From: an uncultured virus (IMG/VR IMGVR_UViG_3300008120_000033)
Lineage: Duplodnaviria > Heunggongvirae > Uroviricota > Caudoviricetes
DNA: 20,000 nt
Direction: 5' to 3' (one strand)
Virus record (IMG/VR): IMGVR_UViG_3300008120_000033
Shown: piece by piece, positions 4,377-20,000 of the stretch
How positions within the stretch are numbered: position 1 is the first letter of the stretch
Layout: each line of letters opens with the position of its first letter
Notes under the pieces: model-generated
Seen by the model: the letters and a program-made list of their open reading frames with translations, nothing else
What the model was told of the DNA's origin: nothing
Databases searched by the model: none
Made by a program: the position numbers and the translations under genes

Positions 4377-5441
4377 ATGAAGGGCCTAATTCTTGCTGGT
4401 GGTCATGGAACCAGACTGCGACCAATAACGCACACACGAGCGAAGCAACTCGTTCCAATAGCTAATAAGCCAATAATCCACTACGCCATTGAATCAATGG
4501 TTCGGGCCGGCATAAAAGAAATCGGCGTAATTATTGGCAAGAACGGTGCCGATGTGATTGAGTCACTTCGTAACGGTGAACAATTTGGTGCCGAAATAAC
4601 TTACATGAAGCAATCAATACCAAGAGGTCTTGCTGATTGTGTTTCAATAGCTCGTGATTTTCTCGGTGAAGAAAACTTCATCATGTACCTAGGCGACAAC
4701 ATGATTGAGATGGAGTTGTCAACTTTCACGGAAACATGGATATCAGAGGGGGCAAAGATACTTCTCTGCCAAGTTGATAATCCAAAGAGCTTCGGTGTTG
4801 CCCAGTTTGATGACTCTGGAAAAATTGTTCGCCTTGTAGAAAAACCGGAATATCCACCATCGGACATGGCTCTTGTCGGCGTATACATGTTTACCCCAGA
4901 TATTCACGAAGCGGTTGCATCAATTAAGCCATCAGCGCGCGGAGAACTTGAGATTACCGATGCGATTCAGTGGTTGCTTGATTCGGGTAAGCCAGTATTT
5001 CACGAGACACTCTCTGGGTGGTGGATTGATACTGGCAAGAAAGACTCCCTACTTGAATGCAACCGTCTTGTTCTTGACACAATTGAGCGACACATAGATG
5101 GCGATATTGATTTGATGACAGTGCTTGAGGGGCGCATATCCATTCCGGATGGCGTAACGATTGTCAACTCCAGAATTTCAGGACCGGTAATTATTGGTTC
5201 TGGAACGGAAATACGCGACTCTTATATTGGTCCATATACGGCAATCGGCTCAAACTGTGAAATCATCAATTCAGAGATTGAAAACTCAGTAGTGATGGAC
5301 GGAAGCGAAGTAAGAGAAATAAGAAGAATGACTGATTCCCTTATTGGTATGAACGCAAGACTTATGCCATCACCAACAAAGCCAAAATCAACACGAATGA
5401 TGATTGGTGACGACTGCGTAGTGGAGGTAGCAGACCAATGA
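4377..5441 (+). CDS. rfbA: Glucose-1-phosphate thymidylyltransferase, long form with C-terminal left-handed beta-helix
   Basis: GLILAGGHGTRLRPIT, KQL.P, LGDN, VEKP, SARGELEITD, W.DTG; hexapeptide-like tail. Confidence 0.95.
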   Translation: MKGLILAGGHGTRLRPITHTRAKQLVPIANKPIIHYAIESMVRAGIKEIGVIIGKNGADVIESLRNGEQFGAEITYMKQSIPRGLADCVSIARDFLGEENFIMYLGDNMIEMELSTFTETWISEGAKILLCQVDNPKSFGVAQFDDSGKIVRLVEKPEYPPSDMALVGVYMFTPDIHEAVASIKPSARGELEITDAIQWLLDSGKPVFHETLSGWWIDTGKKDSLLECNRLVLDTIERHIDGDIDLMTVLEGRISIPDGVTIVNSRISGPVIIGSGTEIRDSYIGPYTAIGSNCEIINSEIENSVVMDGSEVREIRRMTDSLIGMNARLMPSPTKPKSTRMMIGDDCVVEVADQ

Positions 5442-6004
5442 TGAGAGTAGATTCAGAAATAATCAATGGTGTATCAATCATTATCCCGGATGTATTCCAG
5501 GACGAAAGAGGATGCTTCATAGAGACATATAGAAGAGAATGGTTTCCTAATTCCCGCGAAATGATTCAAGGAAATCGCGCAGACAGGGCATATGGTTCTG
5601 TCGTTGGTCTTCATTATCACCTTCACCAAGCAGATTACTGGTATGTGCCTTTTGGTTCTTGCCGAATAGTGCTTCACGACCTACGCGTAGGGTCATCGAC
5701 AAAAGGCAGAACGCTTATTATGGATGTTGGCGCACCAATCGATGGACCCGGACTTCATAACCACAGTGGCGTGTACATCCCACCAGGTGTTGCTCATGGA
5801 TTTTCTGCCCTTACAGATATGACAATCACGTACATGGTTGATGGTTACTACAACAAGCACGATGAACTTGGTGTTGCTTGGGATGACCCAGCGATAAACG
5901 CTCAATGGGGTGTTAAGTATCCGATTCTTTCTAAAAGGGATATGAACAATCCTCGTATTGACGAAATTCCCGAGCGTTTAATGCCGCATTTCGGTTTGCG
6001 CTGA
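5438..6004 (+). CDS. rfbC: dTDP-4-dehydrorhamnose 3,5-epimerase
   Basis: F.DERG.F.E, GLHYH, DLRVGSST, YIPPGVAHGF, WDDP, P.LS.RD. Confidence 0.95.
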   Translation: MMRVDSEIINGVSIIIPDVFQDERGCFIETYRREWFPNSREMIQGNRADRAYGSVVGLHYHLHQADYWYVPFGSCRIVLHDLRVGSSTKGRTLIMDVGAPIDGPGLHNHSGVYIPPGVAHGFSALTDMTITYMVDGYYNKHDELGVAWDDPAINAQWGVKYPILSKRDMNNPRIDEIPERLMPHFGLR

Positions 6005-6005
6005 A

Positions 6006-6974
6006 ATGAAACAACTAGTAACCGGCGGAGCTGGCTTTATTGGCTCAAGCTACGCACGCCATGTGTTAAAAAATACAGACGATGAAGTTGTCGTATACGA
6101 CGCGCTCACCTATGCCGGAAACATGTCTACAATGATTGACCTAAGGGATGATAAGAGGTTTTCCTTCGTCCATGGAAACATATGCGACCCATCATCACTA
6201 TGGGAAGCAATGAAGCAGTGTGATGTTGTTGTTCATTTTGCAGCAGAAAGCCATGTTGATAGGTCAATAAGTGGCTCTGATGATTTCATACTTACCAATT
6301 GTTTTGGAACAAACGTAGTGATGAATACGGCACTTGCTGTTGGTATCGAAAAAGTTATCCATATAGGTACAGACGAGGTTTATGGCTCAGTAGATGTCGG
6401 TTCATCGCTGGAGTCGGACCCACTTGAGCCACGGTCTCCATACTCAGCATCAAAAGCCGGTTCTGACCTCATAGCTCTTTCATATCACCACACACACGGG
6501 CTTCCGGTAACAGTCACTCGGTGTACGAACAATTTTGGACCGTTTCAATATCCAGAAAAAGCAATACCGCTATTTGTGACCAACCTGCTAGAAGGAAAAA
6601 ACATTCCACTATATGGGGACGGGCTAAACGAGAGAGACTGGCTATTTGTAGACGACCATTGCTCTGGAATTCTTCTAGTGCTAAACAAGGGTCTAGATGG
6701 AGAGATTTATAACATTGGCGCCGGAAACGAAACGCCAAACATCGAACTAGTGATGAAAATACTTGAGCTAACGGATTTTGGTGAAGACAAAATTTCATAT
6801 GTCGAAGACAGAAAGGGTCATGACCGAAGATACTCCGTCGACATTCAAAAAATTTCCGACCTTGGCTGGAGGCGTTCTCGTTCGCTAGATGAAGCTCTTG
6901 CCGAAACAGTTGGGTGGTATATAAATAACAAGTGGTGGTGGGAGCCACTCAAGAAAAAAGAAGGAATAAAGTGA
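6006..6974 (+). CDS. rfbB: dTDP-glucose 4,6-dehydratase
   Basis: GGAGFIGS, DALTYAGN, HFAAESHVDRSI, TDEVYG, YSASK, DRKGHDRRY. Confidence 0.97.
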   Translation: MKQLVTGGAGFIGSSYARHVLKNTDDEVVVYDALTYAGNMSTMIDLRDDKRFSFVHGNICDPSSLWEAMKQCDVVVHFAAESHVDRSISGSDDFILTNCFGTNVVMNTALAVGIEKVIHIGTDEVYGSVDVGSSLESDPLEPRSPYSASKAGSDLIALSYHHTHGLPVTVTRCTNNFGPFQYPEKAIPLFVTNLLEGKNIPLYGDGLNERDWLFVDDHCSGILLVLNKGLDGEIYNIGAGNETPNIELVMKILELTDFGEDKISYVEDRKGHDRRYSVDIQKISDLGWRRSRSLDEALAETVGWYINNKWWWEPLKKKEGIK

Positions 6975-7831
6975 GAGTTCTTGTAACTGGCGCTAATGGT
7001 CAGCTCGGCAGTGAAGTTGTTGCCGAGTGTCTCGCTAATGGTGACGAAGTTATCCCAATGACGAGAGAAGATGCCGACCTAGCAGACTTGCTAGCTGTGG
7101 GTAAATTTATCCAGGAACTTAGACCGACTCATATTATTCACTGTGCAGCAATGACCGGTGTCGATAAGTGTGAAACATACTCAAGGGAAGCAGTGAGAAT
7201 AAACACTCTTGCCACTGACATGATTGTTAGAACGGCCTATGAAATAGGGGCTCACGTCACATACATCTCAACAGACTACGTATTTAGTGGTAGACAAGAT
7301 GAACCATACGTCGAGAGCGACAGTCAATTCCCAATAAACAAGTACGGTATAACCAAGAAAAACGGAGAGCTTGTTCTTCGCCCAACAGATGCAATCGTTC
7401 GAGTCTCATGGTTATTTGGCCCAAATGGAAATAACATCGTAAAGACTGTTCTAAATCTCTGCAAAACCCAGGACGAGCTTAGATTCGTGGATGACCAAAT
7501 AGGCAATCCCACGTATGCGCCAGATGCCGCACGAGTTATTTCGAAAATATCCCGCAATAACATGGTGGGGATTTTTCACGTAACAAATGAAGGCTCAGTG
7601 TCGTGGTACGAATTTGTACGCGACCTACTCGATATTGCTGAAGTAAAGCATGTTGTTCTCAAGCCCGTCTCGAGCGTCGACATGCGTGTGTCTGGCTCAG
7701 CACTAAGACCGAAGAATTCAGTGCTCGCCAATACGAGACTTACTCCCGAAGCTGGATTTGAGCCGATGCCCCACTACAGGAACGCCCTCCAGAGAATGGT
7801 CGACGAACTTGCTGCTAGAGGAAGTATCTAG
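6971..7831 (+). CDS. rfbD: dTDP-4-dehydrorhamnose reductase
   Basis: GTGA overlap start: (M)RVLVTGANGQLG; ISTDYVF.G, YGITK, DQ.G.PT, RP.NS.L. Confidence 0.95.
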   Translation: MRVLVTGANGQLGSEVVAECLANGDEVIPMTREDADLADLLAVGKFIQELRPTHIIHCAAMTGVDKCETYSREAVRINTLATDMIVRTAYEIGAHVTYISTDYVFSGRQDEPYVESDSQFPINKYGITKKNGELVLRPTDAIVRVSWLFGPNGNNIVKTVLNLCKTQDELRFVDDQIGNPTYAPDAARVISKISRNNMVGIFHVTNEGSVSWYEFVRDLLDIAEVKHVVLKPVSSVDMRVSGSALRPKNSVLANTRLTPEAGFEPMPHYRNALQRMVDELAARGSI

Positions 7832-9604: not shown

Positions 9605-9769
9605 GGGGTCATGGTATCGCCGGCCGCGACCATATTGCCGGCTCCTAGGGCAGGTTTGGATAAATTTAAGTGAAGTAATTTGGAGTCCAAAATTTCTGTA
9701 GTAGCTGGCCACCGGTTGGGGGGTGCCAGTGAAAGTAGGCGGGGCTCACAGCGCGTGGGGTCGGCATCT

Positions 9770-10083
9770 ACGCAATGATGGACTGTCACGCAGTGTGTCA
9801 CGGGGTGAGCGCAACGCACACGCACACGCAATGCGCACACACACGCATACGCAACGCAGTAGCAACGCACACGCAATGCGCAACGATTACGAAAGTGTGT
9901 CAAGCAGTGTGTTACACACGCACACACGCACGCCGTTGTAAGTGTGATGCGAACACACACGCAAGCAAGCGACAAGCAAACACACAAAGTGTAAGTGAGT
10001 GTGTGTGAAGTGTTGAGAGACAAGCAGTGTGAGTGTGTTACGCACAAGCAGTGAGCAAGGCTAGCGATACAGTGAGCAATGCG
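9770..10083. repeat. Low-complexity alternating purine/pyrimidine tract (ACGCA/CACAC/GTGTG units)
   Basis: GCAACGCACACGCA at 9811 and 9862, CAAGCAGTG at 9901/10021/10045; overlapping ORFs are Cys/Val or His/Thr artefacts. Confidence 0.85.
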
Positions 10084-10326
10084 TCAGTGAGTAGGTGAGT
10101 CACTATCGTGCTCGTTGTCATAAGTACGCAGAGAGAAGTAGAACAAGGCAGAGTACACACACGCCACGGGTAGCCAGCCGACATACCACCCACCTAGTGA
10201 GGCAAGCCCTAGTAGTCCCATACCTATCGCCGTGTAGGCACGCACGACAACAGTGCGCCCATCTACCTCAGGCAGTGAGCGTTCAGGTATCGCCCTCTCC
10301 CACCCATCTTCTTGACCGAATGCCAT
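10084..10326 (-). CDS. Small membrane protein (2 TM), probably leaderless
   Basis: Hydrophobic central segment; minus-strand GTGGCA-17-TAGGGT, 6 nt before ATG. Confidence 0.65.
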   Translation of the reverse strand: MAFGQEDGWERAIPERSLPEVDGRTVVVRAYTAIGMGLLGLASLGGWYVGWLPVACVYSALFYFSLRTYDNEHDSDSPTH

Positions 10327-10428
10327 ACCATTACCCTAGTCATTGGTCGCCCAAGTGCCACGGGTGAGCAGGTAAATAAGTCGCACGAACCCTTTACATT
10401 GACACACCCACCTACTACTGTGAGCGGT

Positions 10429-10614
10429 ATGGATACAACAACGACCCACATACGACCCAGAGTCATTCACGCCCTGCCCCTTGGCAGTGTGGTACAAGTG
10501 TTCGCCAAGAGCACTGATACAGATGGCGTCTCACACACGCAGGTAGACACCATTGAGTGTGTCTCCCCTGAGCAAGCAGTTGCTATTGCGAGGTTCTATG
10601 AGGCGATAGGCTGA
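10429..10614 (+). CDS. Hypothetical protein (61 aa), probably leaderless
   Basis: TTTACA-17-TACTGT (10393-10421), 7 nt before ATG (MDTTTTHIRP...). Confidence 0.7.
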   Translation: MDTTTTHIRPRVIHALPLGSVVQVFAKSTDTDGVSHTQVDTIECVSPEQAVAIARFYEAIG

Positions 10615-10618
10615 GCCA

Positions 10619-10798
10619 ATGAGCGAGACATTCCGACTAACAGTCGCAGTGCGCAAGCACAAAGACCTTGACAATCCGACAACAGTTGATGAGGCTGTTG
10701 CAACTGTGTACAACCTCTTGACACAAGGCGCACTCATAGAAGTAGTGAGCGTGTTGCCTGAACAAAAGAGTAGTGGCAATGAGGTCAAGTGGGGATAG
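10619..10798 (+). CDS. Hypothetical protein (59 aa)
   Basis: Manual ORF MSETFRLTVAVRKHKDLDNP...EVKWG filling the gap between neighbours. Confidence 0.6.
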   Translation: MSETFRLTVAVRKHKDLDNPTTVDEAVATVYNLLTQGALIEVVSVLPEQKSSGNEVKWG

Positions 10799-10835
10799 GT
10801 GACACGTCTCTCACGCAGTGATACTGTTGTGAGCA

Positions 10836-11207
10836 ATGAACACCTATCTGTTTGTCACGCCCTATGCGGTATTGCGTGAACGCATAAGTGTTGGTGCGCC
10901 GTCATTCTTTGAGATAGATGAGCGTGAAAGAATGACGAGAATTCACCTCGCAGCACTGTTCACCACCAAAGTGCTTGATGCTTGTCGTGCGCACGACGTA
11001 ACGCCGTGGAGCGCCACGGGTGTCCCATTTCAGATGGTATCCCTGATGGCGGAAGCCGAGAGACAGTTAGGTATCGCAACATCGGATACCGAACTGGAAC
11101 TAATGAACAGATGGAAGCGGTACGAAGCGCAGTACATCGCAAGCCAACGCAAGCAGTATGCCTACTCAACATTCATACGAATGACCTCAGGTGCATTCAG
11201 TAGATAA
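10836..11207 (+). CDS. Hypothetical protein (123 aa), probably leaderless
   Basis: GTGACA-17-TACTGT (10799-10827), 8 nt before ATG; stop TAA lies inside a GTAGATAAG box. Confidence 0.7.
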   Translation: MNTYLFVTPYAVLRERISVGAPSFFEIDERERMTRIHLAALFTTKVLDACRAHDVTPWSATGVPFQMVSLMAEAERQLGIATSDTELELMNRWKRYEAQYIASQRKQYAYSTFIRMTSGAFSR

Positions 11208-11261
11208 GGCGCAAGTGCCACGGGTTGCCAAGTTTGTCCCCAGTGTGGTACGCTCGCAGTT

Positions 11262-11648
11262 ATGAGAGAAAAGAACTATGCAGTGTGCTCGGCGTGCGAC
11301 ACACGCACTGAGTGCAACTCGCAACTCATCTACCCTGATAATGGTTGGGTCTTACCATTTGACACATTCGGATACTACGGTGGATTTGACGACATGATGC
11401 CTGTGCTCGCAGGCGACCAACGAACGAGAGAATGGATTTTCTGTCACGATTGCGTTGTGAAGTTTCTCGAGCTTTTCCCCCGACTCGCTGAGAAACTCGG
11501 AGCGAACTGTCACCCTTGCGATGACGAAGTGCCGTGTTGCCGTCACGCTTGGCAAGGCACAGACCTGTTCGGCACTGACATCTATGGTGTCCACGCTCGT
11601 ACTGCCTGGCCTGATGGCCAATGGCACGATGACCCGCCGACTACCTAA
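11262..11648 (+). CDS. Cys-rich putative zinc-binding protein, probably leaderless
   Basis: CSAC, CHDC, CHPC, CC; TTGCCA-18-TACGCT, 7 nt before ATG. Confidence 0.75.
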   Translation: MREKNYAVCSACDTRTECNSQLIYPDNGWVLPFDTFGYYGGFDDMMPVLAGDQRTREWIFCHDCVVKFLELFPRLAEKLGANCHPCDDEVPCCRHAWQGTDLFGTDIYGVHARTAWPDGQWHDDPPTT

Positions 11649-11662
11649 CTACGGGTAGATAA

Positions 11663-11890
11663 CTAGTTTCCCTTGCGTTGTGTGTGTCTGATTGACTCGT
11701 AGCAACGGAGCATCGCTTTCACTATTGACGTGCACGAACCACTTGCCCAGTAATCACTAGGCGTGCCGTCTTCAAGCGTCGGTACACCACGTTTCCACGC
11801 AGTGCATTTCCATTGGCCAGCGATGTTCGTTAGTTGGAAGTCCATGCCATTGAGGTGAAACCACTTAGTGAACTGCGTGATGTCACTCAT
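11663..11890 (-). CDS. Hypothetical protein (75 aa)
   Basis: GGAGG upstream of ATG 11890 (MSDITQFTKWF...). Confidence 0.65.
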   Translation of the reverse strand: MSDITQFTKWFHLNGMDFQLTNIAGQWKCTAWKRGVPTLEDGTPSDYWASGSCTSIVKAMLRCYESIRHTQRKGN

Positions 11891-12091
11891 ATCGTTCCCG
11901 TCCTCCGTGCTTGTGGAATGTCCGTAAAGTACTGGCATCTCGTCAGCATACCGCTAATCAGCGGGGCTCCCGGCAGGGTGTAAGGCTGGGGCTTGCTGTG
12001 GCGTGGGGTGGCAGGTAGATAAGTCGGGAAATACTTGTAAGTCTGTACCACGTGTGATACGGTGAGTGTGTCGCCAAACGAAAGGGAAAAA

Positions 12092-12370
12092 ATGGCTACT
12101 ACACACCACACCAACCGAAACCGAGCGCAAGACGTGACAGTAATGCGCACTCTCGCTGTCCTGTCGTGGGCGTTCCCGTTGTTCGGGGTTGCTCTGCTGG
12201 CAGTGTCTTACTACTCACACGCTCTGTACGACTTGCTCGTGGGCGGTGTGTTCGCAGTGTTCGGGTCAATCGGCGCAACGCTGATGACAATCGCAATGAG
12301 CAACGCACTTGCCGAAGAGCGCAACCACGAGCGCCAAGCCCACCCGTCCTATCCGTTCCGTAATCGCTGA
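12092..12370 (+). CDS. Two-TM membrane protein
   Basis: Promoter TTGTAA-17-TACGGT (12035-12063), AAAGGGA RBS, two hydrophobic helices. Confidence 0.7.
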   Translation: MATTHHTNRNRAQDVTVMRTLAVLSWAFPLFGVALLAVSYYSHALYDLLVGGVFAVFGSIGATLMTIAMSNALAEERNHERQAHPSYPFRNR

Positions 12371-12384
12371 AAGGTAGATAAGTC

Positions 12385-13083
12385 ATGACAACCGCAACCG
12401 ACACCAAAACCGCCGAGGTCATTGCTGAAATGCTGACCGAGAATACGGGTAGGAGTATGCTTGATAGTGGCGACTACTACGGCAGACACTACGAGAAAAA
12501 CGCAGGCAAGGTGCTTGCTGATTTTGAGAGCGAACCGCAAGCGTGGGCGAGTTCCTACGGCGTGACGCTTTCCGTGTTTCACTATCTCACGGCGCGCGTC
12601 AAGTATGACGACTCACTCAATGCTGAGTGGGATTCGTTCTGCTCTCACAATGCTGATGACGGGTACTTCTCACTCATGCAGGATTTCGCCAATGAGCGCG
12701 ATTCGTCGGCGCATACGTGGAACACCTATAACGGGGACGATTCACTCTCGCAAACCTTGCAGGGTGTCACGTTCGCAATCGGTGAGCGTGTGTACGCGCT
12801 GATTCAGATTCACGGGGGTTGTGACGTTCGCGGTGGCTATACGCGTCCGCGCGCATTCCGCATTGAGATGAGTGACGCGTCATACTTTCCATGCGATAAC
12901 GATTCCTATCACGTCACGTGTGACAGTGGCGAAGAGACTCACGGACTCTCGTGGTACGGCGAGTGGATTTCGTGGGAAGGTTCTTGCGCTGACGATTCGT
13001 CCTATCCCGAGTACACGGGTGAAGGCATGAAGTGCGCGCAGTGTGGCGCAGGCATGACCGTACACGCGCCCGAGCCCTACTAG
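12385..13083 (+). CDS. Phage-type hypothetical protein with C-terminal CxxC
   Basis: 232-aa ORF with motifs ENTG.S.LDSG..YGR and IHGGCDVRGGYT.P; function unknown. Confidence 0.8.
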   Translation: MTTATDTKTAEVIAEMLTENTGRSMLDSGDYYGRHYEKNAGKVLADFESEPQAWASSYGVTLSVFHYLTARVKYDDSLNAEWDSFCSHNADDGYFSLMQDFANERDSSAHTWNTYNGDDSLSQTLQGVTFAIGERVYALIQIHGGCDVRGGYTRPRAFRIEMSDASYFPCDNDSYHVTCDSGEETHGLSWYGEWISWEGSCADDSSYPEYTGEGMKCAQCGAGMTVHAPEPY

Positions 13084-13246
13084 CGAGCGTTCCCTATCTC
13101 CGCTTGCTAGTCCTGCCCCTGCCCTGCTTAGTAGATAAGTGGGGTGGGGGCTAGGTCTTATCTACCTACTTGCATTCTCTGCCCGAGAGCAACCGAAGCG
13201 CGAACGCGCGAGGGCGCTAGCAGCCGGGGCTCCTGAGTGAGTAGTG

Positions 13247-14497
13247 CTACCTCGTCACTGTCACGATGCGAGGCTTATCTACCACTTCATCTGTTGCGCT
13301 TCCACCTCTGCGGTGCGCATTTATCCAGCGAGCACGGTGCATCTGTTGCGATGGATACCACTGATTACGCCAGTGTCCACGCACAAGGTGTGCGAGCGAT
13401 ACCTTGCGCCCTGTTGCTGAATCACTATCACCGTAGAGCGCCCTGCGTAGTTCTAGCGTGGTGATACTGTCAGTGTTCACGCGTCCAGCCCTTGCGCCCC
13501 TGCGAGAGAACGGGCGAGGCACACGGGTTGTTTCAACATCTACGTACTCATTCATCAAACGCAACAGTGCAACGATGAATCTACGAGACCTGCGATAACG
13601 GTCAAAACTTGACTGATTCATTACTTCTTCAAACGAGTCATTTTCAAGTTGAAAACCATCTTCTCCATACATAAAGTAGTAACTGTCAATCAGATTCATT
13701 TTCAACGAGATGAGTGGGTTTCTTACGACAAGTGTCAAACCGTCAATCTCTGAGCTGACAATACGCCCAAACACACCAACGATGATTGCGTTCATCGGGT
13801 GCTCTGTTCCGTCCTCTTCAACAAAACGTGCGTGATTCAATTCCTTCTTCTCGTAGTGTTCCAACTCAAGTTGGAATTTGTATTCAGGACTAGCAGTGCC
13901 ATACTGCTTCGCTACCGATTCAAGCACGTGAGGATAGATTGACTCGCAATCGCCCCACGAAAATGCAACGATTTCGTAAACGTCTACGCCATCAAGGTAT
14001 CCGTCCTCTGTCTGCGTGTACTTACGGGTTCCCTCAACGGTTCCACCGTATTGACGAACCTTATCTACTAGTTCGTCAATGTCATCCGATAAGCATCCAG
14101 CTGCAACCCTCACCTGGATTGGGCGTTCAAGGAAAACCATTGCACACGGCGTGTAGACATCAGTGCGAAAAAGAACTTCATCAGGCATTGACTCCGATGC
14201 TGTGTGCACCAATTCGTGTAGTTCTTCCGATAGGTACACAGTGTCTGCACGGGAAATGATTTCATCATCCGTCAAACGCCACACGTTATGAGCAACGCGC
14301 GAGTCTGCGAACTGCTTTTCTTTGTTCTCCAATGTAACTACCGACTCAAACAATCCATTCTGCTGAGCAGTCCACTGAGATGCGTGCAATAGTCGGTCTG
14401 CGCTCGGGTGGCCTTTGCGCCACACCAGGTATTCAGTCTGCATTTCATGTGCCTCTAATGGCGAGGTCAACCCCTTTGGGCTTTCAGTACCAGTCAT
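13247..14497 (-). CDS. Hypothetical protein with C-terminal VRGHWRNQW basic motif, probably leaderless
   Basis: 416-aa ORF; minus-strand TTGATT-17-TATTAT (14504-14532), 6 nt before ATG. Confidence 0.85.
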   Translation of the reverse strand: MTGTESPKGLTSPLEAHEMQTEYLVWRKGHPSADRLLHASQWTAQQNGLFESVVTLENKEKQFADSRVAHNVWRLTDDEIISRADTVYLSEELHELVHTASESMPDEVLFRTDVYTPCAMVFLERPIQVRVAAGCLSDDIDELVDKVRQYGGTVEGTRKYTQTEDGYLDGVDVYEIVAFSWGDCESIYPHVLESVAKQYGTASPEYKFQLELEHYEKKELNHARFVEEDGTEHPMNAIIVGVFGRIVSSEIDGLTLVVRNPLISLKMNLIDSYYFMYGEDGFQLENDSFEEVMNQSSFDRYRRSRRFIVALLRLMNEYVDVETTRVPRPFSRRGARAGRVNTDSITTLELRRALYGDSDSATGRKVSLAHLVRGHWRNQWYPSQQMHRARWINAHRRGGSATDEVVDKPRIVTVTR

Positions 14498-14605
14498 GTC
14501 ACCATAATAAACAATGCAAAGAGAAAAATCAACTCTTCGACTTATCTACCTGTCCACCCCAGCTCACCCTGGTCAGCGGGGCTCCTGCTGGACTTATCTA
14601 CCCAT

Positions 14606-14640
14606 AGATAAAGGGGGCGAACCGATTGGCTCACCCCCTC
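14606..14640 (-). terminator. Intrinsic terminator of the 14672-14971 gene
   Basis: Minus-strand RNA AGGGGGUGAGCC-AAUC-GGUUCGCCCCCU, 12-bp stem with two G-U pairs, then UUAU. Confidence 0.75.
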
Positions 14641-14671
14641 AATCAGGGAACCCTCGCTTGGCGAGACTTAT

Positions 14672-14971
14672 CTACACGCTGTCTGTGTGCTGTGTGATTG
14701 CGCCATCAACGGCTCGCTGAGCGTTCCGAAGTCCTGCGGTCTTGCAGGTCGTGGCAAGCAGTTGAGCGATTGTCTGTTGCAGACAAGATGCGTAGAAGTC
14801 GGCCATCGCTGGTGTCTGGGTGACCTTCTCAAACGCGTCCTGTGCTTGCAGGGCGAACTGGTGGAACTCACGGATGATGTGACCATCGAACATGTCGATT
14901 TCTCGTGCGAGGTATGCGCTGAGAAGCGATGGCATCGCCTCTGCTTTCACTGGGATGATTGGTCTGGACAT
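14672..14971 (-). CDS. Hypothetical protein (99 aa)
   Basis: GAAAGGGG RBS before ATG; TAG stop lies inside a GTAGATAAGTC box; terminator follows. Confidence 0.7.
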   Translation of the reverse strand: MSRPIIPVKAEAMPSLLSAYLAREIDMFDGHIIREFHQFALQAQDAFEKVTQTPAMADFYASCLQQTIAQLLATTCKTAGLRNAQRAVDGAITQHTDSV

Positions 14972-15164
14972 GGTGACCCCTTTCGGTCGGTTCGGGGGCG
15001 TTGGTGCCTCCTATCAACACTGTACCACATACGGTTCAGACTTATCTACCCGTTCCCCGTGCGCCCAACCCACCCCCGAGGGGGAGCCCCGCCTGAAATC
15101 ATCTGCCTGAAAGGGAGTACTTTCAGATAGATTTATCTACAAGCAAATAGCGAACGGAGACGAA

Positions 15165-16190
15165 ATGTCACACGACATAGAAATCAACGAAGACGGCACA
15201 GCCAGAATGGCTTACGCCGACAGGGAAATCCCTTGGCATCGCCTTGGAACACCAATGAAGGGCTTGCAGACGGCAGAGGCAATGCTCGCCGCCGCCCAGG
15301 CCAACTTTGATGTCGTGACCACACGGGTAGCAGTGTGTGACGATAATGGCGAAGTAATCAGAAACTCTGATGGCTCGCTCGTTCTAGTACCAGACAGTAG
15401 AGCCACAGTGCGTGTCAATGGTGACGGCACGTTCAATGGTCTTGCAACGGTTGGCACACGCTACGTGGTGCAGCAAAATCGTGAATGTCTTGACTATGCG
15501 CTCGCTATCGCAGGAGCATCTACGGGTGATGCAGTAGTAGATACTTGCGGTGTTCTCAATGGTGGCAGAGAGTTCTTCTCATCTCTTGACCTGGGTGCGC
15601 TTGTCATTGACCCAATGGGCGTGAATGACCAGATTGAGCGTTATCTACTAGTTCGCAATGGGCACGACGGAAAGACGGCGATTACGTTCGCAAACACAAG
15701 TATTCGCGCCGTATGCAAGAACACTGTTGTTGCAGGTCTTAGCAGTGCACGGAGAGTGTTCACTGCTCGTCATACACGCAACGCCGAGCGTGCGATTGAA
15801 GAAGCAAACAGTGTGCTCGAAATCTCCAATGAATGGGCAAAAGCGTTTACAGCAACTGCTGAGAAACTTCTGTCAATCCCCGTTGCGCCTGGCTCAAAAG
15901 TGCTGAACGAAACACTGAATGCAGTATTTCCACTGGAAACAAGTGCAACAGAGCGTCAGAAGCGCAACAGAGACAATGTGCTTTCACTTGTTCGTGCGGT
16001 GTATGACAACGACAACAACGCAAAGGGCTATGGGTACAACGGGTGGTCACTAGTGAATGCTATTGGTGAATACCTTGACCACTATCGTGATGCAACAGTG
16101 ACAGAGCGTGCGCTTGCGTCAATGGATAACAATTCTTGGGTGACTCGTTCAAAGATAAAAGCTCAGGATTTCCTCTTGTCAAGTCGTTGA
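15165..16190 (+). CDS. DUF932 (phage/plasmid TIGR03299-like) protein
   Basis: PWHRLG, Y.VVQN, YLLVRNGHDG, T.IR.VC.NT, RHT, W...NAI.EY.DH motifs. Confidence 0.9.
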   Translation: MSHDIEINEDGTARMAYADREIPWHRLGTPMKGLQTAEAMLAAAQANFDVVTTRVAVCDDNGEVIRNSDGSLVLVPDSRATVRVNGDGTFNGLATVGTRYVVQQNRECLDYALAIAGASTGDAVVDTCGVLNGGREFFSSLDLGALVIDPMGVNDQIERYLLVRNGHDGKTAITFANTSIRAVCKNTVVAGLSSARRVFTARHTRNAERAIEEANSVLEISNEWAKAFTATAEKLLSIPVAPGSKVLNETLNAVFPLETSATERQKRNRDNVLSLVRAVYDNDNNAKGYGYNGWSLVNAIGEYLDHYRDATVTERALASMDNNSWVTRSKIKAQDFLLSSR

Positions 16191-16238
16191 TAACAATTCC
16201 CTGTATCATTGACTTATCTACGGACATAGCGAGGCCTA

Positions 16239-16682
16239 ATGAGCGAAGACGACGAGAACTTTTACGAGTTCCTCTCTGACGGCGATGGCGACATGCCTAC
16301 ACCGGCAGAACTTGCCGTCTGGCTATCCGACTTCATGTCTCAATCACAGAAAGCGCGACAGATGTATCGTTCGCATTTTTGCAACATCATCGCCAATCGT
16401 ATTTGGGATGAGTTCGGCGTTGAGGGTATGTGCGACCTCATGATTGCTATTGACAAGAAGGCTGGCTGGATTTCAGACATCATCATTGAAGATGCTGACA
16501 TTCATGATGCTCTGTTCAAGACGTACGGTGTCTATGACAATGATGCGATAATAAAAGCACGAATGAGCCGTGAAATGATTGAGTTGAACAAGAAGATTTG
16601 GCGCCTTCGCAGAAAGTACTCGAAGTTGATTGCCGAAGAAATCTTCCGTGGCGTCTCGCCAGAAGAAGAAGACGCTAACTAA
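16239..16682 (+). CDS. Hypothetical protein (147 aa)
   Basis: GAGG RBS, clean ORF converging on the helicase gene. Confidence 0.75.
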   Translation: MSEDDENFYEFLSDGDGDMPTPAELAVWLSDFMSQSQKARQMYRSHFCNIIANRIWDEFGVEGMCDLMIAIDKKAGWISDIIIEDADIHDALFKTYGVYDNDAIIKARMSREMIELNKKIWRLRRKYSKLIAEEIFRGVSPEEEDAN

Positions 16683-18591
16683 TCTTGTCAATCATGCTCA
16701 GAATGAGCTGAACCGCTCCATCGTCCGCAACCATTTCTCCGCCCTCTACTGCTGCATTCACTACTGAACGCTTGTTCTCAATTAGTGAATAGATGTCCTC
16801 GTCTATCGTGCCAGCAGTGAGCATGTAGGTGGACGTAACGCTCCCCTTTTGCCCAATACGGTGAAGACGGCTGTATGTCTGGTCTACGTCTGCGGGTGTC
16901 CATGGCAACTCAATGAACAAGCATTCTTCCGATGCGGTGAGAGTGTGACCAGTCTTGGCTGCTTGTATCGAAAGAACGATGACTGGCGCCTTATCTACCG
17001 AGAGTGTCTGGAACTTGTGCTTATTGTCCTCTACTTCCTCTACTGCCATTCCGCCCTGAATACGAAGGTTGCCATACTTTCTAGAAATCTCATCCACGAT
17101 GTCTCTGTGGTGAGCGGCAACTACGACTTTTTTACCATTTTCCACCCGAGCCTGAATCCATTCCATTGCGGCTTCCATCTTTGCCTTTGCTGAAAGCCGG
17201 CGAAGAACGGACAAACGAACCAAATGCTCGTTTGCCTCTGCTCTAATCATTGCGGCAATGGCGGCACCGTACGATGGCTTGCCTTGCTCGATTGCCATTT
17301 GCCGTGCTCTGTCTGCGATGTAAACAAGAATGTCATTCTCTGCCTTCTTGTATTCCTTCATCGCCGCGCTCTCGCCCTCAATGAGAATCTTGCTGTGAAT
17401 CACGGGTGGTAATTCGGAGAGAACTTGGTCTTTCGTACGCCTGATGTAACACGTGCCTCGCAGGCGCTCATTGAGTTCATCTAGGTGCGAGTGTCCACTG
17501 ATGTTCCACTGACCGAACTTGTCCTGATAGGCAGCGCAGTAGCGTCGGTAGAAGCCCCACAGACCACCAAAGTCTTTGAGTCTTCCAAGAATCTCGAGCT
17601 GAGAGGCGTATTCATTCGGCCTGTTTGTTACTGGCGTTCCAGTGAGACACAGAACAATGCCCTCTTTGGGGGCGCTACGGGCTATCTTGACTGCTGCTTT
17701 AGTGCGCTGTGCTGTTGGCGTTTTGCAGTAGTGACTCTCATCGAAGATGTACGAGCGGTGACCAGACAAACTCTTCTCCCATGTTGCGAGATTGGAATAA
17801 CCAACCACTACAACGTCATAGGAGCCAGCGTCAGGGAACTCTTTTCTATTGGTCACCGTGGCGACTCTCCGATGTGGCAACCACTTACGGTATTCAGACG
17901 CCCAGTTAAGTACAAGGCTTGGAGGACACACAACAACGGCTGGATACGAGTCGTAGACATACTCAACGGTCGCCAGTGCCTGAATGGTCTTTCCTAGACC
18001 CATCTCATCTGCAATGAATGTACGTAGTGCTTTTGATGCATAGGCAACACCTGCTCGCTGATAAGGAAGTAGGTCACCCTGCAACTTATCTACCTGCACC
18101 CCAGCGTCCGTGGAACGAGAAGCCTCAATAAACTCGTTCATTTTTTCCGTTACGTCATCTGCTATCGCGATTACTTCGGGCTCGACATAGACGGAGAATG
18201 TTTCTGCCCAGTTGATGACTTCCTTGACGGATGAGAGGGGCGCCTGCCATGCAGACTTCTTGCTGTCCCACGAGACTGCGGGTATTTGCTTAACCGCTTT
18301 AATGATAACCCTCTCGTAGGGGAACCTCATTATTATTGAACCATCCAGCAAGAACACCCTTGCTGAGGCTGTCTTGGGCTTATCTACCAAGAACTTCATT
18401 GCATCCAGCGCAACTTCAAAGTCGTGCTTCATTGCGAAATCTCTGCCCTCGTTCATTGAGGTGATTGGGAGGCGCCACACTTTGCCAAGCTTGTCCCATT
18501 TGGCTCCAGTGATTTTCTTGATTTCATTCACCTGGCCAGCGTCGTACGGAAAGTCCAGTACTACTTCGCCATTCTCTAGGTACATCCTCAT
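16675..18591 (-). CDS. SNF2-family helicase/ATPase with two N-terminal HARP-like repeats (SMARCAL1-like)
   Basis: ADEMGLGKT, DESH, LTGTP, RR.K, GHTLT, QTYSRLHRIGQ; repeats FPY...IK.I....WD..K.W..P. Start 18591 chosen from TAGGCT -10 lying 7 nt upstream. Confidence 0.92.
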   Translation of the reverse strand: MRMYLENGEVVLDFPYDAGQVNEIKKITGAKWDKLGKVWRLPITSMNEGRDFAMKHDFEVALDAMKFLVDKPKTASARVFLLDGSIIMRFPYERVIIKAVKQIPAVSWDSKKSAWQAPLSSVKEVINWAETFSVYVEPEVIAIADDVTEKMNEFIEASRSTDAGVQVDKLQGDLLPYQRAGVAYASKALRTFIADEMGLGKTIQALATVEYVYDSYPAVVVCPPSLVLNWASEYRKWLPHRRVATVTNRKEFPDAGSYDVVVVGYSNLATWEKSLSGHRSYIFDESHYCKTPTAQRTKAAVKIARSAPKEGIVLCLTGTPVTNRPNEYASQLEILGRLKDFGGLWGFYRRYCAAYQDKFGQWNISGHSHLDELNERLRGTCYIRRTKDQVLSELPPVIHSKILIEGESAAMKEYKKAENDILVYIADRARQMAIEQGKPSYGAAIAAMIRAEANEHLVRLSVLRRLSAKAKMEAAMEWIQARVENGKKVVVAAHHRDIVDEISRKYGNLRIQGGMAVEEVEDNKHKFQTLSVDKAPVIVLSIQAAKTGHTLTASEECLFIELPWTPADVDQTYSRLHRIGQKGSVTSTYMLTAGTIDEDIYSLIENKRSVVNAAVEGGEMVADDGAVQLILSMIDKIS

Positions 18592-18755
18592 GGGTAAAAG
18601 CCTAGCAATAAATAGGTAGATAGGTAAGGCCGGCGAGATGCGTTCCGAGGTGTACCGAGAAAGGAGTGGAACGCACCCCACCAGCCCTTGTAGTCAACAT
18701 ACCAGCATTTACCATTATTTGCCAAGCCGGCGATGCGGCATGTATCCTGTAGCGC

Positions 18756-18848
18756 ATGAACCGAGAGAATAGAGATTCAATGATTATCCTTGGGATAGTT
18801 TTCTTTGTCGTGATGGGCCTTCTTTGGGCCATAGACAGGATTCGCTAA
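18756..18848 (+). CDS. Small single-TM protein (30 aa), probably leaderless
   Basis: TTGCCA-18-TATCCT, 7 nt before ATG; MNRENRDSMIILGIVFFVVMGLLWAIDRIR; TAATG overlap with the next ORF. Confidence 0.6.
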   Translation: MNRENRDSMIILGIVFFVVMGLLWAIDRIR

Positions 18849-19057
18849 TGAGCGGAGGAATACCAGCAATGTATCGCTGCATTGTCTGCGATTTGCCAAT
18901 CCGCCCCCAGGACGGAACAACCGTTCGTCTTGCTGTTGTGTGGCTAAAGTCAAAAGGCACCACAATTAGCCGTGTCCAAGAAGAACTTCATAACTACAAG
19001 CACGAGTTCTGTGACGAGCGCAGACTTGAAGAAGCAATGCAGCCGAGCTTGTTTTAA
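18848..19057 (+). CDS. Small putative zinc-binding protein
   Basis: CIVC...HEFC; alternative start at 18869 after GGAGGA. Confidence 0.65.
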   Translation: MSGGIPAMYRCIVCDLPIRPQDGTTVRLAVVWLKSKGTTISRVQEELHNYKHEFCDERRLEEAMQPSLF

Positions 19058-19147
19058 AATCTGAGCTACAAGTCGACAACAAAAAAACGAAAAATCGACA
19101 CGCCCTGAGTTCCCCTGTAGAAAAGTCACCTATGGGAAACTATTGCT

Positions 19148-19285
19148 ATGGCAAAGCGCGACCAAGACCCAGCACCAAATCCCGAATCTGCTGCTGTCCC
19201 ACCTAAGAAACGTTCCGTTCTTGTGTCAGACGCAAAGAAAGCGACCCGCCCCCCCAAGGCAGGTCGCCGTCCTTGTTGTCCGTAA
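19148..19285 (+). CDS. Small basic Pro-rich peptide (45 aa)
   Basis: MAKRDQDPAPNP...KAGRRPCCP; fills the intergenic gap. Confidence 0.4.
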   Translation: MAKRDQDPAPNPESAAVPPKKRSVLVSDAKKATRPPKAGRRPCCP

Positions 19286-19302
19286 TTTTCGGACCGACTT
19301 AT

Positions 19303-19560
19303 CTACTTGTTCTCCGTATAGTGGTTTCGCCATTGCGAAGGTGAATGCGCGTGCTCGACAGCATCTTTATGCTGCTCGCTTTCGTACATTCGAACGATGT
19401 GAATACAGGGGTCGTGGCCCTCGTCAAACTCTTCGTCTTCCTCAAGTGCAGTAGGGAGACCGTCGTGCGTGTAGCACACTGGCGGTCCACACCATCCACG
19501 GGTAATTCCTATAGCAATCCAATCGTCAAACGAAATCGACTCTTGGTCAACTTCTGACAT
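19303..19560 (-). CDS. Hypothetical phage protein (85 aa) with Cys/His motifs
   Basis: W..IG...GWC.P.VC.THDG.P...DPC.H; TAG stop lies inside a GTAGATAAGTC box. Confidence 0.8.
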
Positions 19561-19952
19561 TAGGAATTGCTTTCCGGAGTCGCGTCACTCACTGGTGTAG
19601 AGAGAACGGATACGTAGTTCACATCCTTGCGCGTTGTCGACTTGCTACGACGCGTAATCGGAATGACCTTCGCAAGCTTCTTTGCAATCGGCTTCTTCTT
19701 CGGCTGAGCCTTCTTGGCAACAGTCTTTGCAGCCTTCTTAGCCGGAGCCTTCTTTGCGACAGCCTTCTTGGCCGGCGACTTCTTTGCAGCAACCTTTTTG
19801 GCAGGCGCCTTCTTCGCGCTTGCCTTCTTGGCTGCAGGCTTCTTCTTGGCCGGCGACTTCTTTGCCACGGGCTTCTTCGCGGCAGGCTTCTTGGCCACCG
19901 TCTTCTTTGGTGCCGCCTTCTTGGCGGTCTTTTTCGCAGGCTTGGTAGCCAT
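19560..19952 (-). CDS. Histone H1-like Lys/Ala-rich basic protein
   Basis: Many PAKK/AKK repeats; AGAGGAGA RBS upstream. Confidence 0.85.
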
Positions 19953-20000
19953 GGTTTTCTCCTCTGGTATCGGGTTACACCCCGGATGGCTCAGGATACA

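Follow-up and report, generated by a model that had tools for sequence, protein, structure and literature searches.

What maintains a single short DNA word in codons, in stop codons and between genes of one part of a phage genome? The question is raised by a 20,000-nucleotide stretch of an uncultured member of the Caudoviricetes (IMG/VR record IMGVR_UViG_3300008120_000033; hereafter the window), in which the word GTAGATAAG occurs in 16 exact copies, all at positions 11200-19306; shuffled sequences held 0.07 copies on average and 2 at most. With one mismatch allowed there are 26 copies against 2.6 expected. The word is asymmetric and non-palindromic, its consensus is pure (fuller form RGTAGATAAST), and 15 of the 16 copies are co-oriented with transcription. 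An initial annotation of the window had proposed that selection on the word shapes coding sequence, as in the uptake sequences of Neisseria and Pasteurellaceae. The effect on coding sequence is supported here at the level of codons and of amino acids; the likeness to uptake sequences holds for that effect only, and not for the system, which belongs to a phage, occupies a 32-kb island, is sense-biased and is tied to promoters. Its confinement to an island, its link to promoters and its spellings specific to each lineage, all described below, were missing from the earlier proposal.

The nearest record, G001, is a complete phage genome of 151,107 bp, and the window corresponds to its positions 53753-73923 in reverse, at 99.6% identity. 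G001 encodes capsid, portal, terminase, baseplate J and tail sheath proteins together with two WhiB proteins and an Rpf-like transglycosylase, a gene content from which it is probably a freshwater myophage of Actinomycetota. Its terminase is nearest to those of psiM2 (44%) and Gordonia phages (42%). The stretch was found in 20 runs from 12 studies, all lake, freshwater or labelled fungus metagenomes; no RNA dataset was among the runs listed with it. G001 has 85 copies of the word, 80 of them in the island at about 30.8-62.7 kb. Island genes are small, and the island differs from the rest of the genome in coding density (0.67 versus 0.91) and in GC content at third codon positions (0.58 versus 0.44). 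They are presumably expressed early in infection.

Copies in codons and stop codons

A sense-strand copy leaves little choice to the gene that contains it. Two of its three frames contain TAG or TAA, so that an in-gene copy must read Val-Asp-Lys (VDK) or provide a stop; on the antisense strand all three frames are open. The VDK tripeptides and the word-borne stops noticed earlier are therefore one phenomenon, forced by the genetic code. As had been claimed, all three VDKs of the SNF2-family helicase and both of a 416-residue protein are spelled GTA GAT AAG, and the VDK of rfbD (at 7160) is GTC GAT AAG; rfbD is, however, a single control. A proper one is provided by the whole of G001, in which the exact codons are used by 10 of 11 island VDKs and by 4 of 11 elsewhere, the expected fraction being 0.03-0.05. 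The word also supplies the stops of three window genes, as stated (Table 1), and it lies close to the ATG at 12385, although it does not strictly abut it.

Six relatives have the same island with spellings of their own, among them ATAGATAAG, ATAGATAAC, CTAGATAAG and GTAGGTAAG. The G003 word, ATAGATAAG, has 66 of its 68 copies in the island; the corresponding figures are 64 of 68 for ATAGATAAC in G004, 107 of 110 for GTAGATAAS in G007, and 75 of 77 for GTAGGTAAS in G008, a word that G009 shares. G012 uses CTAGATAAG and G010 uses AAGGATAAT. Each lineage's word is very pure, with one-base variants rare except at the last position. In a quick tree of the SNF2 helicase (47 of 85 rows) the word lineages, G010 and four rows in which words are few or absent group together as a clade of 12 rows, with a support of 100 in the Shimodaira-Hasegawa-like approximate likelihood ratio test.

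These spellings allow each genome to be compared with its own word. In the island genes of seven genomes the own word occurs in frame 54 times, whereas codon shuffles give 0.6, and the own tripeptide occurs 66 times against 16 expected. Exact word codons account for 54 of these 66 tripeptides (2.6 expected), compared with 7 of 76 tripeptides for the words of other lineages. Outside the island the own word makes up 7 of 85 (3.7 expected), four of the seven in G001. The 54 sense copies within island genes are accompanied by 10 antisense copies, for which the expectation is again 0.6, and the own word contains the stop codon of 38 of the 302 island genes and of 3 of the 876 other genes. We regard it as nearly certain that the word itself is under selection.

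Homologs bear out the same conclusion for the protein sequence. The helicase, whose relatives in lake phages are 54-93% identical, was aligned with 78 homolog rows, many of them redundant (L029 was left out). VDK is absent from homologs at helicase residues 68 and 166 and at both sites of the 416-residue protein, which has homologs of 38-45% identity in related phages. At residue 166, L003 and L005 of the G003 lineage have IDK, encoded by their own word ATAGATAAG. Residue 531 is the weaker case: VDK occurs there in 4 of 78 homologs, once spelled as the exact word, in a lineage where the word is not dense. In L412, with a helicase 93% identical to that of the window and 82% nucleotide identity over this gene and its neighbors, all 27 word bases of the helicase are intact, 256 of 566 conserved degenerate codons have changed, and 7 of 8 aligned words are retained overall at 21% divergence; next to the retained word at residue 531, the following codon in L412 supplies the consensus T. 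Most in-gene sites lie in variable linkers, as is reported for uptake sequences (PMC2817400). Neither finding that would have spoken against the earlier proposal, VDK conserved where homologs lack the word or similar counts after codon shuffling, was obtained for most sites.

Tracking of individual sites in 13 genes and 11 genomes is the strongest evidence that the word acts on protein sequence. In the gene beside an AAA ATPase, one alignment column reads VDK in G001 and G007, IDK in G003, IDN in G004 and LDK in G012, each encoded by the phage's own word, and G008 and G009 have VGK eight columns upstream; in another, low-complexity part of this gene all seven genomes have their own word, at staggered columns. 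At the C-terminus of the helicase, G007 reads VDN and both G008 and G009 read VGN; homologs of the 416-residue protein have VDK in G007 and VGK in G009, and a 155-residue protein has VDK in G007 and VGK in G008. Against these cases stand many in-gene sites that are private to one lineage, and 4 of the 13 tracked genes had none. Moreover, the VDK in the Walker B motif of the AAA gene itself is conserved in G004, G008, G009 and G011, which lack the word there, so that this site reflects synonymous recoding only. Among word-borne stops, that of the 85-residue gene has a counterpart in G007 (Table 1); none of the six homologs of the 123-residue gene ends in its own lineage's word, and the 99-residue gene had no homolog among 10 other genomes.

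Selection on the word thus shapes protein sequence, homologous codons switching between VDK, IDK, IDN, LDK and VGK with the word of the lineage. Nature provides here a clean example of a DNA word, most likely regulatory, that takes precedence over the sequence of proteins. Since the same codon position follows each phage's word, residues specific to a lineage need not reflect the function of the protein.

Table 1. Word copies and associated features of the window
Feature	Position	Strand	Remarks
Part of the island of small, presumably early genes	10312..20000	.	G001 about 30.8-62.7 kb
CA-rich low-complexity stretch at the island edge	9740..10300	.	No exact word to its left
SNF2-family helicase gene with three in-frame words	16675..18588	-	Pfam SNF2-rel_dom PF00176, Helicase_C PF00271
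Word as VDK, helicase residue 68, variable linker	18379..18387	-	VDK in 0/74 homolog rows with residues; identical in L412
Word as VDK, helicase residue 166	18085..18093	-	VDK in 0/78 homologs
Word as VDK, helicase residue 531	16990..16998	-	Near family consensus V-[DE]-[EK]; weakest site
Gene for 416 residues, function unassigned, two in-frame words	13247..14497	-	phrog_15934 only
Word as VDK, residue 144 of 416	14060..14068	-	VDK in 0/9 homologs
Word as VDK, residue 406 of 416	13274..13282	-	VDK in 0/9 homologs
Word holding TAA stop (11205-11207) of 123-residue gene (10836-11207)	11200..11208	+	40 bases upstream of next promoter -10 (11249-11254)
Word holding TAG stop (14672-14674) of 99-residue gene (14672-14971)	14667..14675	-	
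Word holding TAG stop (19303-19305) of conserved 85-residue gene	19298..19306	-	G007 ends the gene in its own variant
Word 2 bases before ATG of 232-residue gene	12374..12382	+	G007, G008, G009: own word upstream of homolog
Predicted early promoter, word (15041-15049) in -35 slot	15019..15049	-	Word 16 bases before predicted extended -10 (15019-15024)
Word (12015-12023) upstream of predicted promoter	12015..12063	+	Predicted -35 12035-12040, -10 12058-12063
Inverted word pair where two transcription blocks converge	13131..13165	.	RNA fold -10 to -15 kcal/mol
Two words in the intergenic region before the 416-residue gene, on either side of AGCCCCG (14577-14583)	14541..14601	-	
Sole exact copy antisense to its neighbors, between DUF932 and 147-residue genes	16213..16221	-	Gone in L412
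Variant GTAGATAAC, antisense inside DUF932 gene (codons R-Y-L-L)	15640..15648	-	G004, G007: own word at equivalent codon

Promoters and a proposed binding protein

Predicted island promoters have in common a core made up of a conserved spacer element and, after it, an extended -10; G001 has 21 such cores, all in the island. The core is common to G001, G003, G004, G007 and G008, and its -35 region is poorly conserved; the pattern was found in none of G012, G011 and G014. In 12 of the 85 G001 copies the word lies exactly 16 bases before the extended -10, replacing the -35 hexamer, and elsewhere the distance is 25 or 32 bases (G007), 28-29 (G003) or 24 (G004). Further copies stand between predicted promoter and start codon, and several island promoters have no word. 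A shared core combined with a varying word-to--10 spacing fits repression better than activation.

The intergenic regions have a recurrent order: stop codon, often antisense or inverted words, the inverted repeat AGCCCCG-N16-19-CGGGGCT, a sense word, the promoter and a ribosome-binding site. Of 37 copies of AGCCCCG in G001, 36 are in the island, forming 13 inverted pairs there, and the element is present also in lineages without the word. It is limited to the island in all nine genomes counted, often as pairs 16-19 bases apart, and is conserved where the word is not; in the window it occurs at 9740-9746, 11962-11968, 13225-13231, 14577-14583 and 15085-15091. A fixed distance between the AGCCCCG pair and the word was rejected as a general rule, being seen in only G001 and G007 of 10 genomes. 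A third repeated element, GACGGTGGTGGA, shared across clades, precedes some promoters (for example, before G001 40408 and 42850), and GACGGTGG has 10 of its 13 G001 copies in the island. In the outgroups L052, L053, L072 and L229 the island promoters appear to be leaderless: about 6 bases separate the -10 from the start codon, whereas promoters in the clade of the window have leaders. A PafBC-type promoter motif has no occurrence in the G001 island, and the polarity of the word toward 13148 that the window hints at, which would recall Ter or KOPS sites, gave way on inspection: copies are oriented according to the transcription block in which they lie, and in the core of the island both orientations are mixed.

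We propose, with a probability of about 0.5, that the word is the binding site of a sequence-specific protein, most likely made by the phage, that keeps island transcription in check, as at operators and stoperators. Overlap with promoters at variable spacing, sense-biased copies in leaders, stops and genes, and drift between lineages together point to a site of repressor type. Each small island gene would have its own promoter of host type. Initiation would be blocked where the protein occupies the -35 region, the bases just before it or a site between the promoter and the start codon; elongation would be halted at sense-oriented copies in stops and within long genes. Because long genes offer no intergenic space, selection would there build the site from codons in tolerant loops, where the code allows only VDK. 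When the specificity of the protein shifted in a lineage the sites would follow, codons included. What the sequences show directly are the counts, the confinement to the island, the bias in orientation, the promoter geometry and the amino acid changes that match each lineage's word; binding by a protein, its phage origin, repression and early island expression are inferred. The five matched word variants are available for finding the protein.

Several observations weigh against this proposal. The sites are not genome-wide as they are in L5, 80 of 85 lying within 32 of 151 kb. The antisense share (10 of 64 in-gene copies) and the common intergenic inverted pairs fit poorly with a strictly oriented block. 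No tyrosine integrase (PF00589) was found in any of five genomes by a six-frame search that did not extend to serine integrases, so that lysogeny, which a repressor would serve to maintain, is not evident; a ParA-like gene is present in G001, G007, G008 and G011 and absent from G003, G004, G009 and G012. Some of the statistics also call for caution: the seven-genome tests use related genomes (G008 and G009 share a word) with island borders set from the word itself, genes were called by a simple purpose-made caller (score at least 6), and codon retention in L412, taken alone, gives p of about 0.03 by arithmetic from the counts.

Candidate tests and a column scan of families also found no protein that covaries with the word, L5 gp71 homology not having been searched directly. 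One candidate, an island winged-helix protein encoded at G001 38197-38685, has a copy of the word in the leader of its own gene, yet its predicted recognition helix is kept in lineages with other words or none; its model (predicted local distance difference test score 82) matched no PDB entry at E<=0.001, the only row being a weak one to the Rok DNA-binding domain (E 0.2). In an XRE protein the helix is identical between G007 and G008, whose words differ. The column scan, which took in 105 families, found 308 columns matching the word versus 319 and 293 for control patterns; its top family (G001 131372-132019; 10 columns versus 2 and 1) lies among tail genes and shows conservative changes. Other candidates were discarded as well: two ribbon-helix-helix genes, WhiB, a TrmB-like protein and a helicase-associated helix-turn-helix protein have conserved recognition elements, and a fast-evolving winged-helix gene (G001 23743-24225; L150:3743-4225), whose syntenic counterpart in G011 is short, is not the same in G008 as in G009, although these two share a word. 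The product of this core gene is 26-34% identical between lineages, its neighbors being about 60% identical, possibly a result of diversifying selection.

Alternative explanations

The word might instead mark DNA that enters first and is terminally redundant, serving entry, protection or circularization. In four studies contig depth rises 1.2- to 2-fold at about 28.35 kb of G001, going into the island (11.8 to 18.1; 32-45 to 58-104; 3-7 to 10-11; 22, or 14 in one contig, to 27), and one record, G002, is an island-only contig (G001 27.4-65.5 kb). Of 39 contigs of 20-120 kb, 25 have an end close to the island edge, at 5-17 kb beyond the winged-helix gene, where 11.8 were expected. T5-like phages offer a parallel in the paired DnaA boxes of their first-step-transfer region, a terminal repeat that is injected first (bioRxiv 10.1101/866236). 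However, each depth is one figure per contig and gives no copy number, the step falls on a tRNA gene that breaks assemblies, one of the depth runs is possibly the source of the same DNA, and the 5-17 kb bin was picked after the data had been seen. The depth steps are thus a weak hint that the island is terminally redundant. A role in entry, moreover, predicts neither the fixed promoter geometry nor the sense bias, and the words are more evenly spaced than random in only one of five genomes. We consider this explanation unlikely.

Slightly less probable still is a degenerate DnaA box, or a site for another host protein, through which promoters would be tied to the state of the host or a host factor would be titrated. 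GGTAGATAA and TGTGGATAA agree in 7 of 9 positions and share the S-T tail. Perfect DnaA boxes stand upstream of island promoters in relatives from outside the clade (10 in L052, 10 in L241, 9 in G014 and 6 in L053), at 39-41 bases before the -10 in L052, L053 and L060, some in 12-bp tandem as are the words at G001 46399/46411; the 12 rows of the dense-word clade have 0-1 perfect boxes per locus. This distribution, with a word two bases away from the box, suggests that the word descends from an input by host DnaA. A host site must contend with the two mismatches to the DnaA consensus TT(A/T)TNCACA (bioRxiv 10.1101/866236) and with the existence of five pure spellings in phages that are as much as 80% identical, which fit a conserved host protein badly; the likeness was also spotted after the fact. 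A scan of GTDB for tandem words yielded, among the matches listed, 2 Actinomycetota in 80 named rows and no word-rich locus, and a phage DnaA domain IV (PF08299) was found in none of five genomes.

The two preceding ideas can be combined with a phage-made reader protein. The clade might have replaced its relatives' DnaA boxes by a private, DnaA-like word and a phage reader of an unrecognized family, perhaps delivered with the virion, so that the word would coat a first-entering, terminally redundant segment of roughly 35 kb. Each shift of specificity, rewriting some 80 sites per genome, would then separate kin by self-marking without lysogeny. This scenario is speculative, and we think it improbable.

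Activation has about as little to recommend it, or marginally less. The T4 MotA box is an activator box, and the word could likewise switch island promoters on. The 12 G001 copies in the place of a poorly conserved -35 agree with this, but the distance to the -10 is not fixed (16, about 25, 28-29 or 32 bases among lineages, with variation within lineages too), an activator leaves the in-gene and stop-codon copies unexplained, and several promoters lack the word.

It is very unlikely that the copies are by-products, without a function of their own, of duplication and recombination of a promoter-hairpin cassette, such as the promoter and stem-loop (PeSL) cassettes that shuffle small genes in T4-like phages (PMC4122927). 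Intergenic copies do sit in a repeated cassette, many at 38-44 bases from the AGCCCCG inverted pair in G001 and G007; the in-gene copies have no cassette flanks, yet amino acid changes track the lineage word there, which largely refutes the by-product explanation for them. Finally, an uptake sequence of a competent bacterium, which the tripeptide excess and the variable residues resemble (PMC2817400), can be dismissed on context, since the record is a complete phage with capsid, portal, terminase, baseplate and sheath genes, the word is limited to the island, and it is sense-biased whereas orientation itself is unimportant for uptake sequences (PMC2817400).

Surroundings of the island and comparison with known systems

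The CA-rich stretch at the island edge (G001 63650-64330) differs in length between the window and G001, and similar repeats terminate the G004 and L013 records; it is possibly a genome end or a packaging or injection-stop region. At the opposite edge a tRNA gene (L150:8308-8379; G001 28.3 kb), the site of the contig-depth step in four studies, adjoins WhiB, two ribbon-helix-helix genes and a replication-initiator-like gene. An Rfam search found only tRNAs.

In the part of the window outside the island, a set of genes predicted to be complete for deoxythymidine diphosphate-rhamnose synthesis, rfbA-rfbC-rfbB-rfbD, occupies 4377-7831; all four are common to G007, G008 and G009 and not to G003. 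Several small genes at 1366-2650 start with the same repeat, encoding D-D-I-V-T-R-L-R (at about 1380, 1845, 2070 and 2515). Within the island, 19560-19952 encodes a lysine/alanine-rich protein like histone H1 (HC2), which had no match in the other genomes with low-complexity masking on. Elsewhere in G001, a trio of ParB-like, phosphoadenosine phosphosulfate-reductase-like and ParB-like genes (127009-129733), with a reductase 87-94% identical across relatives, is probably a DNA-modification module. The sequence GATC does not occur in G001, G003, G004, G007, G008, G011, G012 or G014, eight of the nine genomes counted, and occurs 792 times in G010; other four-base palindromes are common in G001. 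This suggests avoidance of a GATC-directed host nuclease, which would have been lost or countered in G010.

No paper on the word or on this phage group was found in a literature search whose scope excluded subscription journals and supplements. What is new here is the codon-level tracking across lineages, together with the DnaA-box and depth leads. The PeSL cassettes of T4-type phages share with the island a repeated promoter and inverted repeat between variable small genes (PMC4122927). That description fits the intergenic cassette and does not concern the word: PeSLs are intergenic and, as far as the available account of them goes, do not explain a short word selected inside codons.

With the paired DnaA boxes of the T5 first-step-transfer region the word shares 7 of 9 bases, the 12-bp tandem and an early location, and perfect boxes occur in similar cassettes of relatives. 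T5, however, has 8 copies (bioRxiv 10.1101/866236), whereas the island has 80, with two mismatches, pure lineage spellings and many copies in genes; the G001 island has no perfect box. Uptake sequences share a raised encoded tripeptide, poorly conserved residues at the sites and variants between lineages (PMC2817400), with a tripeptide excess of about twofold there and about fourfold in the island. They are chromosomal, dispersed in hundreds to thousands of copies, whereas the word is found in a phage, is regional and sense-biased, and is linked to promoters.

The closest comparison is with the operators and stoperators of Cluster A phages, such as those of L5 gp71 and the TipsytheTRex repressor. 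Cluster A sites are 13 bp long and number 20-30 (PMC6550527, PMC9283540); the word is 9-11 bp long, in about 80 copies. Unlike theirs, it is confined to a 32-kb island with many copies built from codons, and neither a tyrosine integrase nor a covarying repressor was found. We do not class the array as a Cluster A system, because its sites do not span the genome, lysogeny is not apparent and a cognate repressor was not found. The two nevertheless share an asymmetric short word in many copies, mostly co-oriented with transcription, lying both in promoters (predicted ones, in the island) and away from them, with a consensus that is lineage-specific and varies among related phages (PMC6550527, PMC9283540). 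In the available portions of these sources, shutoff or insulation of early genes is described only for temperate Cluster A phages, and the word bears on how large, apparently lytic actinophages may accomplish the same.

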